Shown: piece by piece, positions 50,008 through 51,084 of the stretch
Numbering within the stretch: the stretch's first letter is position 1
Layout of the letters: each line of letters begins with the position of its first letter
DNA from: Melioribacter sp.
Lineage (GTDB): Bacteria; Bacteroidota; Ignavibacteria; Ignavibacteriales; Melioribacteraceae
Length of the DNA: 64,000 nucleotides
Reading direction: 5' to 3'
NCBI GenBank assembly: GCA_020723965.1
Contig: DYHW01000002.1
Location: 464,198 to 528,197, forward strand
The notes under the pieces: model-generated
Database searches by the model: none
Told to the model about the DNA's origin: nothing
Seen by the model: only the letters and a program-made list of their open reading frames with translations
Position numbers and translations under genes: made by a program

Positions 50008-50036
50008 TTGACATTTTTATCATTATAAAGTATTTT
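50008..50036 (+). promoter_or_regulatory. Candidate sigma-70-type promoter of the BMC shell operon
   Basis: TTGACA, 17-nt spacer, TATTTT. It lies about 35 nt upstream of the GGGAG RBS/ATG at 50071. Confidence 0.4.
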
Positions 50037-50070
50037 GGCAACAAAATTAAATCAAAATGGGAGCACATTT

Positions 50071-50352
50071 ATGACACTTGACGCACTTGGAATGATTGAA
50101 ACCAAAGGATTAGTCGGATCCATTGAAGCAGCCGACGCTATGGTCAAAGCCGCAAAAGTTGAATTGATTGGAAAAGAGACTATTGGCGGCGGTTATGTAA
50201 CTGTGATGGTTAGAGGCGATGTTGGAGCAGTTAAAGCTGCTACAGATGCAGGCGCCGCTGCTGCACAGAGAGTTGGAGAATTGGTTTCTGTTCACGTGAT
50301 TCCTCGTCCTCATACCGATGTTGAATTGATTCTGCCAAAACGTTCAAAATAA
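50071..50352 (+). CDS. Bacterial microcompartment shell protein, BMC-H (PduA/EutM-like hexamer)
   Basis: Canonical BMC domain: [24 protein letters not shown]...[20 protein letters not shown]...VSVHVIPRP. The ATG at 50071 lies 7 nt after GGGAG. The ORF-track TTG at 50035 lies in the promoter. Confidence 0.92.
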
Positions 50353-50363
50353 AATATTAGACT

Positions 50364-51032
50364 ATGCAATTAGCTTTAGGTCTTATCGAAACTAAGGGCT
50401 TGATCGGGGCGATTGAAGCTGCTGATGCTATGGTTAAAGCCGCTAATGTTAAATTAGTAAGTAAAGAGAAAATAACTGCCGCTTTGGTTACTGTTAAAAT
50501 TGTAGGCGAAGTTGCTGCAGTTAAATCTGCTGTGGATGCTGGAGCAGCCGCTGCTCAGCGCGTTGGTCAATTAGTTTCTGTTCACGTTATTCCTCGTCCG
50601 GATGATCAGCTTGAAGAAATTATTTATTATTCAGCTCTTCAAAGTTTTTCTGAAACTAAAGAATCTGATAAAGAAAAAATTAGTTTTTCTGAAGAGAAAG
50701 TAACTCTCTTTAACGGAGTTTTAGTTGAAAAAGCAGTTGCACAAAAGAAAAAAGGAAAACTAAAATCTGTACCTAAAGAGGATTCAAAAAACGATCGAAT
50801 TAAGGAGTTAAGAGAAACTGCTATTAAAGAATTAGAAAGTGGAAGCAAGGAAGAACCGGAAAGTTTTAGTTTTTTAGCTGATGAAGTTCCTCCACCTGAT
50901 ATATTGGATAAAATGAATGTTCATAAGCTGCGCCATCTTGCACGAGCATTTGAAAATTTTCCTATTAAAGGAAGACAAATTTCGAAAGCAAATAGAGATG
51001 AATTGATAGAACTATTTGAAAAGATCCGATAA
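50364..51032 (+). CDS. BMC-H shell protein with about 130-aa C-terminal extension
   Basis: Residues 1-90 form a BMC domain, with about 56 of 76 aligned residues identical to the upstream gene by eye. An E/K/S-rich tail follows, ending [39 protein letters not shown]. Confidence 0.9.
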
Positions 51033-51056
51033 GAGAACCAAACAAATGTTTTTTTG

Positions 51057-51084
51057 AAACTCCGCGTAAGTGGAGTTTTTTTTA
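51057..51084 (+). terminator. Rho-independent terminator after the BMC shell genes
   Basis: Stem AAACTCCGC/GTGGAGTTT (one G-T pair) with loop GTAA, followed by TTTTTT. Confidence 0.7.

Follow-up and report, generated by a model that had tools for sequence, protein, structure and literature searches.

The window analysed here, i.e., the whole stretch of DNA of 64 kb, carries two adjacent genes encoding microcompartment (BMC) shell proteins, BMC-H1 and BMC-H2 (hereafter H1 and H2), whose features are listed in Table 1. Pfam places the pair between genes for RelA/SpoT and RuvX on one side and for YbbR-like and Tmk proteins on the other, just as described in an earlier reading of this DNA made from its letters alone (the sequence-only reading). 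A gene for an S41 peptidase is also found nearby, and none of the genes directly flanking the pair (relA, ruvX, ybbR, tmk, and the S41 peptidase gene) is ParA-like. Genes of the T9SS, typical of the FCB group, are present in the window as well.

Table 1. Features of the two-gene shell protein unit, with positions in the window
Feature	Position	Strand	Basis
Promoter-like TTGACA-17-TATTTT	50008..50036	+	Consensus scan, 10/12 matches
Shine-Dalgarno-like GGGAG, 7 nt 5' of the ATG of gene 1	50059..50063	+	Sequence reading
BMC-H1, 93 aa from ATG, pore loop IGGGY, edge motif PRPH	50071..50352	+	PF00936
BMC-H2, 222 aa: BMC domain, flexible linker, helix, C-terminal HeH-like domain	50364..51032	+	PF00936
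BMC domain of H2, residues 4-79	50373..50600	+	PF00936 and alignment to H1
Low-complexity E/K/S-rich linker of H2, residues 88-141	50625..50786	+	Columns without conservation
Semi-conserved helix of H2, residues 142-159	50787..50840	+	AlphaFold and alignment
Predicted C-terminal 50-residue ordered basic domain of H2, HeH/Rho_N-like	50880..51029	+	AlphaFold, Foldseek, Pfam
Putative intrinsic terminator 3' of H2 and ahead of the ybbR-like gene; 10-bp stem, 4-nt loop, T-run	51056..51089	+	Scan

The pair had been read as a unit of its own, with a TTGACA-17-TATTTT promoter, a GGGAG ribosome-binding site and a terminator, and all of these sites were not only located but also found again in related loci. 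Of 52 related loci, 49 have the promoter motif, identical in sequence and spacing, ahead of the first BMC-H gene, and all 52 have GGAG 4-10 nt upstream of the ATG. In addition, 58 of 81 loci have a hairpin and a T-run (-6 kcal/mol or stronger) behind the tailed gene; the sequence of the stem varies among loci, and pairing is kept through compensatory changes. This recurrence across related loci indicates that the signals are conserved and not due to chance, and the H1-H2 pair is, to judge from these sites, a separate transcription unit, with a near-consensus promoter-like site and its own terminator.

Each of the two proteins has one PF00936 domain, which scores far above the gathering cutoff of 24.5 (104.2 bits, E 3.6e-30 for H1; 92.2 bits, E 2e-26 for H2), in keeping with the initial designation of both genes as canonical BMC-H genes. 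The two proteins, previously estimated by eye to be identical at about 56 of 76 residues, share 58 of 84 (69%) in a BLASTP alignment. EutM, PduA, and the HO BMC-H are the best PDB relatives of the shell domains, with E-values down to 1e-30 or lower; the closest solved relatives of the H2 BMC domain are an HO BMC-H fusion (6NER) and C. difficile EutM (4AXJ, E 2.6e-30), and H1 exceeds the cutoff of the NCBIfam EutM model (139 bits, cutoff 133). H1 is predicted to be an ordinary, fully canonical facet hexamer protein. In H2, alignment confirms that the G-rich IGGGY pore loop of H1 is replaced by ITAAL (K36-I-T-A-A-L41), as already noted by the sequence-only reading, and the edge motif is RPD (PRPD), without the His of the PRPH that is present in H1. 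The interface segment accordingly reads DAMVKAAKV ... PRPH in H1 and DAMVKAANV ... PRPD in H2. The K of D-x-x-x-K, the N three residues further on, and the R of PRPH are what we take, from studies of PduA, to be the residues of the lateral interface; their counterparts K25, N28, and R78 are kept in H2 and are invariant in 73 H2 homologues, which suggests that H2 can tile with H1. Across 73 sequences, hardly any position of the BMC domain of H2 varies, and this extends to the pore loop. H2 is probably a specialised hexamer protein, with a non-glycine pore loop (KITAAL) and a tail.

This tail comprises about 134 residues, in line with the roughly 130 extra residues, an E/K/S-rich stretch coming first, that had been described for H2, and it begins with a low-complexity linker. 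The length of this linker is 56-334 aa (median 110) and its median net charge is -10 among 190 family members, the copy in this window being near neutral (net -2, residues 91-175). It is followed by a helix with the family motif SRLExLRKEA / TIERLRxEALG, in which L149, A153, and E156 reach a conservation of 90% or more and which AlphaFold places at residues 2-19 of an 82-residue model of the tail, with a pLDDT of about 70. The module suspected at the very end of the protein is a structured domain according to AlphaFold (four short helices, pLDDT 94.2, pTM 0.75) and is shared by the homologues: the last 50 residues of the tail are strongly conserved in 72 of the 72 that were aligned, with the consensus LNVHxLRHxARxFxNFPIKGRxISxANRxELIxxF and a median net charge of +4 over 39 residues.

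Foldseek searches with the 82-residue model were blurred by its disordered part and were hence rerun with the 50-residue domain. The best match in the PDB was Rho (9ff7_A; TMq 0.62, rmsd 2.4 A, non-significant E of 2.3), while Rho_N-annotated phage proteins occupied ranks 1, 2, 23, 25, and 45 in BFVD, with E-values of 0.39 and 0.70 for the top two (both non-significant) and a probability of 0.85 for the best of them; SAP proteins were found at ranks 27, 31, and 41. Rho or Rho_N matches rank top in both Foldseek libraries, with TM values of 0.62-0.73 and rmsd of 1.5-2.5 A. Rho_N is also the Pfam family matched by the largest number of members (16 of 76, best E 0.0017), and SAP is matched by 3 of 76, all of these matches being sub-threshold. 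The window's own tail, compared with Pfam at E-values up to 10, gave no match to Rho_N or SAP and returned FRG2 and SAM_2 alone, both irrelevant, and the tail profile retrieved only MORC2 (E 0.059, non-significant) from PDB sequences. None of the Rho_N or SAP matches of the tail is significant by Foldseek or above the Pfam gathering score. A rho gene, sought as a source of the Rho_N profile, is absent from the window and from the related loci. What the models support is a tail ending in an ordered, conserved basic domain of HeH (Rho_N/SAP-like) character; this HeH-like end had been proposed by the sequence-only reading, to which the predicted order and the top-ranked Rho and Rho_N matches now lend weight, with no match individually significant.

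The tail domain resembles Rho_N and SAP (PF07498, PF02037) in its size of about 40-45 residues, in its two predicted main helices with an extended loop, in its predicted basic surface, and in the pattern L-x-x-L-R-x-x-A ... G-x-x-x-S-K/R-x-x-x-x-x-L-I. It differs from them by a longer loop with an invariant FPIKGR motif of its own and, in the best 150 of 515 clusters, by its occurrence in a BMC-H context only, never in Rho or phage proteins. HeH-like modules can bind proteins as well as nucleic acid.

All of the 120 best homologues cover full-length H2 (100%), tail included; their source names are Ignavibacteria, Melioribacteraceae, and Stygiobacter, and NCBI and Logan both contain a protein identical to H2 (P0001). 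The tail is present in 225 species genomes. The best 80 of the tail-bearing genome loci all belong to Ignavibacteriota or to MAGs labelled Bacteroidetes or Bacteroidota, and the ruvX-BMC-BMC-ybbR order to which attention had been drawn earlier recurs in them, together with the promoter and the terminator. Detection across 82 loci amounts to 79 for YbbR, 77 for BMC-H1, 75 for Tmk, 70 for RuvX, and 69 for RelA, most of the undetected neighbours corresponding to loci cut by contig ends. At 50% identity, the tail is carried by 515 clusters; in nearly all of the best 150, the tail domain is located at or near the C-terminus, and 118 of these 150 have a recognisable N-terminal BMC domain. The remaining 32 representatives are mostly truncated ORFs or have degenerate BMC domains, and the presence of the tail domain on non-shell proteins was rejected on the ground that the BMC-less cases are mostly fragments. 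In one protein, P0217, the tail domain follows an N-terminus of another kind, and this protein is possibly chimeric. Within these best 150 of 515 clusters, the tail domain appears to be a shell-protein-specific appendage, carried essentially only by BMC-H proteins.

A shell-protein-only, fragmented BMC type that is most prominent in Ignavibacteria has been catalogued as FRAG1 by Sutter, Melnicki, Schulz, Woyke and Kerfeld in Nat Commun (Sutter et al., 2021; PMC8217296, Supplementary Data 2). FRAG1 shell genes are scattered around the genome and include a BMC-P triplet (green/grey/orange clades) located elsewhere in the same genome, as well as a PduS/PduT pair that is found in 24 of the 57 catalogued FRAG1 loci and is thus optional; in addition, according to the catalogue, FRAG genomes gave neither enzymes nor encapsulation-peptide hits (PMC8217296). 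The window displays the same features, namely an Ignavibacteria-type host, an extended BMC-H, and the lack of any BMC enzyme adjoining the shell genes, with the caveat for its shell-only character that a deoC gene lies seven genes downstream. Given the same taxon, a shell-protein-only locus, an extended BMC-H, and no architectural difference in this pair, we identify H1-H2 as the conserved pair of BMC-H genes belonging to the FRAG1 type of Ignavibacteriota. As the pair is already in the 2021 catalogue, it is a re-discovery and not a new system, and the earlier statement that its function was undescribed has to give way to FRAG1 (PMC8217296). Of the three options offered by the sequence-only reading, a dispersed compartment or a satellite locus matches the literature; the third, a use of shell proteins outside any compartment, is weighed below. 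What is new here for FRAG1 is that the tail is predicted to have an HeH/Rho_N-like fold and is essentially restricted to BMC-H proteins, that the pair has a fixed place next to ruvX and ybbR, and that its promoter and terminator are conserved. The FRAG3 type of Calditrichaeota has the same shell make-up as FRAG1, including a BMC-H with a C-terminal extension, which, unlike the longer tail of H2, has about 50 residues; a DeoC aldolase (pfam01791) adjoins BMC-P in FRAG3 (PMC8217296), whereas deoC adjoins no shell gene here.

As an ordinary satellite locus, the pair could then simply add hexamers to a full BMC, complete with enzymes, whose genes are elsewhere. BMC-H satellites that tune shell properties are known, e.g., CcmK3/K4, and in the trees of the catalogue Melioribacter roseus is tagged '2loci_inTaxon', with a MIC4 main locus (MROS_0099-0104) and a FRAG1 satellite (MROS_2475; PMC8217296). 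However, the catalogue also treats FRAG1 as a type of its own, with its own BMC-P triplet (PMC8217296), and its MIC4 loci number only 15, from six phyla, as compared to the 225 species genomes with the pair. The conserved, constitutive-looking signals and the fixed housekeeping position are also unlike those of accessory satellites, and we regard this explanation as distinctly improbable.

The other shell components were searched for directly. In the 64-kb window, there is no BMC domain beyond the two (PF00936) and no BMC-P ORF, and the PduS/PduT pair is absent, only two ORFs having a BMC domain. Likewise, no AldDH, PduL, PduS, RpiB, or PTAC was found among the 48 window ORFs scanned with Pfam, which are the large ORFs outside any longer ORF of the opposite strand. 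The sequence-only reading was right that BMC-P, BMC-T, AldDH, and PduL are missing from the window; it was wrong in reporting no signature enzyme, since deoC is present. The BMC-P HMM used on the window was built from 120 real BMC-P sequences and two seeds (EutN and CcmL). BMC-P was not found within 10 kb in any of 162 related loci either. A Haliangium BMC-P query, 100% identical to P0271, retrieved among the matches listed (the best 120) only Myxococcota-type pentamers, at least 73% identical. A synthetic BMC-P query made from those matches, with an AT-rich-biased amino-acid usage, retrieved HO-like pentamers only, again among the matches listed. The listed pentamers are HO-like, of Myxococcota or Acidobacteriota type, and none shares its contig with a tailed BMC-H gene. 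With no BMC-P from a tail-bearing genome among the matches listed, the case for a closed shell comes from the catalogue.

These searches bear on the possibility of shell proteins without a compartment, in which H1 and H2 would form sheets, tubes, or filaments serving as a constitutive nucleoid- or RNA-associated scaffold. Such a lattice would agree with the lack of BMC-P in the window and within 10 kb in the 162 loci, with the lack of pentamers for these genomes among the matches listed, and with the housekeeping context and near-consensus promoter seen in the best 80 of the tail-bearing loci. It is nonetheless very unlikely in our view: the catalogue gives FRAG1 a BMC-P triplet (PMC8217296), the pentamer matches listed are the best 120 and are all HO-like, and H1 has the makings of a fully canonical facet protein.

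FRAG-type compartments are among the least understood bacterial organelles; to our knowledge, neither a cargo nor an operon has been described for them, and no cultured model has been studied. Cultured hosts are available, namely Melioribacter, Stygiobacter, and Rosettibacter. The C-termini of BMC-H proteins are on the concave face, which faces the cytosol in the HO, carboxysome, and GRM2 shell structures, so that the six tails of an H2 hexamer would project outward, from the shell into the cytosol. There, the linker of 56-334 residues would act as a disordered, usually acidic tether (near neutral in the window copy), and the basic HeH domains may bind nucleic acid, the nucleoid being the simplest target; such binding could in turn tether, space, and partition the compartments. 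The rest of their shell, i.e., the BMC-P triplet and sometimes PduS/PduT, would be encoded elsewhere in the genome, as indicated by the literature. Most likely, we infer, the tail faces outward and sets the position of the compartment by tethering it to nucleic acid, and, taken together with the FRAG1 identity, this mechanism seems to us somewhat better than an even prospect.

A genetic result of 2025, by which EutK was shown to position Eut compartments, provides a model for the tether mechanism proposed for H2. Deletion of eutK leaves Eut compartments polar and static, and the positively charged C-terminal domain of EutK was proposed by the authors to bind nucleotides; the extension of PduK also affects compartment location (PMC12487888). 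Like H2, EutK has an N-terminal BMC-H domain and a small, ordered basic C-terminal domain that is thought to bind nucleic acid. However, the two C-terminal domains have no detectable homology, that of EutK being a helix-turn-helix; the linker of H2 is much longer and usually acidic, and its gene is outside any eut operon. Homology of the tail to EutK was in fact rejected, as no EutK chain was retrieved in PDB sequence or fold searches with the tail, and the NCBIfam EutK model NF012010 matches H2 over residues 1-115 only (84.9 bits versus a cutoff of 218). PduK is another case of positioning via a shell-protein extension (PMC12487888), but this extension is disordered and has no HeH domain. McdB, which binds the shell and connects it to McdA on the nucleoid (cited in PMC12487888), also sets microcompartment position; unlike H2, McdAB is a separate two-protein ATPase system. 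In the light of EutK, a predicted ordered, basic, HeH-like tail, carried essentially only by shell proteins and conserved along with the promoter in the best 80 of the tail-bearing Ignavibacteriota loci, leads to the testable hypothesis that shell-borne nucleic-acid tethers position microcompartments.

Alternatively, the tail could be inside the compartment, its helix and C-terminal domain forming a scaffold that recruits or condenses cargo in the manner of EutQ, CcmN, and CsoS2, which connect cargo and shell. The separate semi-conserved helix and the strict co-occurrence of the tail domain with BMC-H in the best 150 of 515 clusters are consistent with such a role, as is the report of no enzymes or encapsulation peptides in FRAG genomes, which would call for an unconventional recruitment (PMC8217296). 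We nevertheless hold an internal scaffold to be unlikely, given that BMC-H C-termini are on the concave face, which is the outward one in the HO, carboxysome, and GRM2 shells, that a basic HeH-like domain at the end of an entropic, usually acidic linker resembles a reach-out tether, and that the EutK and PduK precedents bear on positioning and not on cargo (PMC12487888).

The deoC gene of the window (57913-58779; TIGR00126, E 1.1e-84), for deoxyribose-phosphate aldolase, follows the pair at a distance of about 7 kb on the downstream side. Its product is the signature enzyme of SPU-type BMCs, which are recognised by DeoC (pfam01791), RpiB (pfam02502), and AldDH clustered with the shell genes. 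In comparison to SPU, FRAG5, and FRAG8, the window has a true deoC at a distance of 7 kb, and no RpiB, AldDH, or PTAC was found among the scanned window ORFs; the gene cluster of an SPU-type BMC is thus not present here. Of 47 related loci, only 23 have deoC at 10 kb or less from the pair. The DeoC protein has a conserved 65-residue N-terminal extension that starts with an encapsulation-peptide-like helix (15 residues). The hydrophobic moment of this extension is unremarkable, being reached by 23.5% of the other N-termini in the window, and no PDB relative was found for it. That the extension is an encapsulation peptide, and DeoC a cargo, is a weak lead. A reading of FRAG1 as a constitutive nucleic-acid-binding organelle widespread in Ignavibacteriota, with six HeH domains per hexamer and DeoC as its cargo, or else as a pentamer-less nucleoid-associated lattice, appears unlikely even when both variants are taken jointly; if true, FRAG1 would be SPU-like, DNA- or RNA-tethered, and would confine the acetaldehyde formed from deoxyribose-phosphate. 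The extension is seen only on DeoC, in 79 of 80 metagenome loci, and so far only in loci with an Ignavibacteria-like gene order.

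The two adjacent genes, H1 and H2, are the BMC-H pair of FRAG1, one of the 'fragmented' BMC types described in the catalogue of Sutter et al. 2021, where it comprises 57 loci (PMC8217296, Supplementary Data 2). Because the pair agrees with the catalogue's FRAG1 description in every feature, the finding is a re-discovery of a type catalogued in 2021: the sequence-only reading, which had called the function undescribed, holds for a dispersed compartment or satellite unit with an HeH-like tail, but not for its novelty. No mention of FRAG1 beyond Sutter et al. 2021 was found in the literature searched. 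The analysis adds a fold assignment for the tail, its essentially exclusive occurrence on shell proteins, evidence that locus position and regulatory signals are conserved across the best 80 tail-bearing loci of Ignavibacteriota, and a positioning hypothesis that can be tested; the FRAG1 pair thereby offers a way into an unexplained organelle type.

Each ORF carries one BMC domain in a Pfam scan (PF00936; H1 104 bits, H2 92 bits, gathering score 24.5), as had been recognized by eye, and the two domains share 58 of 84 residues. They diverge as a block only at the pore loop, KETIGGGY in H1 versus KEKITAAL in H2, in line with the replacement noticed earlier. Searching with the H2 protein, we recovered an NCBI/Logan protein identical to it (P0001). 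Each of the best 120 relatives has 100% query coverage, and the sources named among them are Ignavibacteria, Ignavibacteriales, Melioribacteraceae, Stygiobacter, and 'Bacteroidota' MAGs. Across 73 aligned full-length homologues, the H2 BMC domain is nearly invariant, down to its pore loop (K-I-T-A-A-L) and its lateral-contact positions (K25, N28, R78), and it has PRPD where PRPH is usual. The altered pore (Thr-Ala-Ala versus Gly-Ser/Gly-Gly) suggests that H2 is not a main metabolite conduit.

As first described, the pair sits between genes for RelA/SpoT and RuvX and genes for a YbbR-like protein and thymidylate kinase. The two peptides of the tail with the strongest conservation were scanned against 185,579 species, each represented by a single genome; 225 of these genomes were found to encode the tail, and the best 80 are all Ignavibacteriota or MAGs labelled Bacteroidetes/Bacteroidota. 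Gene order hardly varies at these best 80 loci and at two more: relA-ruvX-BMC-H1-BMC-H2(tail)-ybbR-tmk-S41 peptidase. Of the 82 loci, 79 have a detected YbbR, 77 BMC-H1, 75 Tmk, 70 RuvX, and 69 RelA, the gaps falling mostly at loci that end at contig ends. The promoter-like motif recurs with the same sequence and spacing in 49 of the 52 loci with sufficient upstream sequence, GGAG precedes the ATG in all 52, and a hairpin with T-run follows the tailed gene in 58/81 loci, its stems varying in sequence while pairing is kept (AACTCCAC/GTGGAGTT, AATCCCGC/GCGGGATT, AAGGCTTT/AAAGCCTT). This phylogenetic footprinting supports the earlier reading, made from the same three signals, of the pair as a dedicated and conserved transcription unit of its own. 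In addition, the near-consensus promoter and the housekeeping neighbourhood suggest constitutive expression.

Features of the window, with coordinates and strand
Feature	Position	Strand	Remarks
1.1 kb without long ORF	17081-18210		contains the 52-aa ORF
52-aa ORF	17924-18082		GVYVYKIIAGNYQMSKKMILVR
Small SRP RNA, bacterial	33554-33650	+	Rfam RF00169, 60.5 bits
uvrC	33753-35570	-	canonical
tRNA-Leu(CAG)	42022-42106	+	
79-aa Cys-rich ORF	47143-47382	+	between upp and relA; NCBIfam NF041374, E 1.9e-25
TTGACA-17-TATTTT, promoter-like	50008-50036	+	5' of H1
GGGAG	50059-50063	+	5' of H1
H1 ORF	50071-50352	+	93 aa counted from ATG; mechanical ORF list starts at TTG, 50035
H2 ORF	50364-51032	+	222 aa; adjoins H1, same strand
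Terminator hairpin	51056 onward	+	10-bp stem and T-run, 3' of H2
RNase_T-GIY-YIG fusion gene	54405-56081	-	GIY-YIG/UvrC type
deoC	57913-58779	+	TIGR00126 equivalog, 283 bits vs cutoff 117, E 1.1e-84

Beyond its BMC domain, H2 continues from about residue 88 into a non-conserved, low-complexity linker, which in 190 family members spans 56-334 residues; its median length is 110 and its median net charge -10, the window copy being near neutral (net -2). A semi-conserved helix follows (SRLExLRKEA / TIERLRxEALG), and then 50 C-terminal residues whose many invariant positions in the 73 homologues (P176, L181, N185-V-H187, L189-R-H191, A193-R194, F199-P-I-K-G-R204, S207, L214, and F218) bear out a conserved tail; this end domain is basic, with a median net charge of +4 over 39 residues. 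The tail profile, run with HMMER over all 1.84 billion cluster representatives, matched 515 proteins at E <= 1e-3. Among the best 150 of these, 118 carry a BMC domain that can be recognised at the N-terminus, the other 32 being mostly truncated ORFs or degenerate BMC domains, and in nearly all 150 the tail domain is C-terminal or almost so. The tail is thus a dedicated appendage of one BMC-H lineage rather than a mobile domain. The tail family is more diverse than its Ignavibacteria core. Tail-bearing proteins include P0170, P0173, P0211, and P0262, whose BMC domains are highly degenerate, P0217, with an unrelated 170-residue N-terminal region, and P0150 and P0159, with very acidic linkers of more than 300 residues.

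In a model of the 82-residue tail, the C-terminal part is well predicted and the stretch before it is disordered. Modelled from 76 diverse sequences, the 50-residue domain reaches a mean pLDDT of 94.2 and a pTM of 0.75, with four short helices (6-11, 14-23, 32-36, and 39-49), which bears out an ordered C-terminal domain. Three independent lines, none significant alone, concur on its nature. In Foldseek against the PDB, the top match is the transcription terminator Rho (9ff7_A; TMq 0.62 and rmsd 2.4 A across 45 columns), with two more Rho entries among the matches listed, at E-values >= 2.3. Against predicted viral structures, ranks 1 and 2 are annotated 'Rho termination factor N-terminal domain' (E 0.39/0.70, probability 0.85/0.69), and further down come more Rho_N proteins (ranks 23, 25, and 45) and SAP-domain proteins (ranks 27, 31, and 41), with TM-scores up to 0.73 and rmsd down to 1.5 A. 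Finally, Rho_N is the most frequent Pfam match of the 76 tail domains (16/76, best E 0.0017; SAP, 3), all below gathering score; the window's own tail matches neither Rho_N nor SAP in Pfam. The HeH/Rho_N-like assignment made by eye is therefore likely but not proven.

The C-terminus of BMC-H is at the concave face, and in the solved structures of the HO (Haliangium) shell, carboxysome mini-shells, and GRM2 this face is turned toward the cytosol. By analogy, the six tails of an H2 hexamer would point outward and their HeH domains would bind nucleic acid with high avidity, most simply the nucleoid, so that compartments would be tethered and partitioned; we infer this to be their most likely role. 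An experimental precedent comes from Salmonella, where eutK deletion leaves Eut compartments polar and static, an effect ascribed by the authors to the positively charged C-terminal domain of EutK and likened to ParB and McdAB, with a similar role for the PduK extension (PMC12487888). Homology of the tail to this EutK domain was rejected, as the NCBIfam EutK model spans residues 1-115 only, far under cutoff; sequence and fold searches with the tail returned no EutK chains. The two C-terminal domains are thus not detectably homologous, and the catalogue's 'analogous' is fitting (PMC8217296).

Six-frame searches of the 64-kb window gave no further BMC-domain ORF and no BMC-P (pentamer, PF03319) ORF, the latter being sought with the seeds EutN and CcmL and then with an HMM that combined these two with 120 real BMC-P sequences. 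The 48 window ORFs scanned with Pfam (large ones not inside a longer opposite-strand ORF) include no RpiB, AldDH, or PTAC and are housekeeping genes alone, deoC excepted. The earlier observation that no pentamer or signature enzyme was recognised in the window therefore stands for BMC-P and further BMC domains, but had overlooked deoC. At the best 80 tail-bearing genome loci and two others, no BMC-P was found within 10 kb. In two BMC-P protein searches, the best 120 matches listed were all HO-like, from Myxococcota- or Acidobacteriota-type sources, and none of those listed shared a contig with a tailed BMC-H. Since the catalogue is the sole source for a BMC-P triplet in FRAG1 genomes (PMC8217296), there is room both for a pentamer-less use of the pair and for a satellite role serving another BMC; Melioribacter roseus, for one, has entries for both MIC4, another BMC type, and FRAG1 (PMC8217296).

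DeoC is the signature enzyme of sugar-phosphate utilisation (SPU) BMCs, adjoins BMC-P in FRAG3 and is present in FRAG5 and FRAG8; HO compartments have remote DeoC genes with EP-like N-terminal extensions (PMC8217296). In the window, deoC lies 7 kb 3' of the shell pair, and alignment of its product with solved DeoC structures (~220 aa) begins at residue 66, hence a 65-residue N-terminal extension absent from solved DeoC and for which no solved relative was found. It is conserved in syntenic Ignavibacteria loci, the motifs C-x-x-x-x-C-x-GWERN and NGAERIAAG following an initial helix. This helix resembles encapsulation peptides, and the first 20 residues show their hh-xx-hh-xx-hh pattern, as in the peptides of EutC, EutE, PduD, and PduP; the hydrophobic moment of the N-terminus is not unusual. 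In a metagenome scan, the extension was on DeoC alone (79/80 loci), in Ignavibacteria-like synteny only, and of the 47 genome loci with sufficient sequence, only 23 have deoC <= 10 kb from the pair. The extended DeoC as cargo of the pair is thus a weak lead, not a finding. At L045 (Melioribacter sp. SKW195), DeoC has an N-terminal extension of ~70 aa of unrelated sequence (MKNLFDKNFLSTSIESTLNLLNS...); differing extensions at one position may reflect a modular targeting or regulatory role.

Elsewhere in the window, the small SRP RNA and tRNA-Leu(CAG) are the only RNA genes found. The 79-aa Cys-rich ORF matches the GDCCVxC domain-containing (seleno)protein model; the identical Logan contig L001 has no gene call for it, and the end of the ORF overlaps the longest relA ORF. 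Besides uvrC, a second GIY-YIG/UvrC-type gene encodes, by homology with a Pfam-annotated orthologue (L002, 14290-15951), an RNase_T-type exonuclease fused to GIY-YIG/UvrC_M/UVR; synteny of this gene with the shell pair holds in 48/82 loci. Finally, the 1.1-kb stretch is probably what is left of a decayed gene, and its 52-aa ORF resembles, by eye, the sorting domain that type IX secretion substrates carry at their C-terminus.
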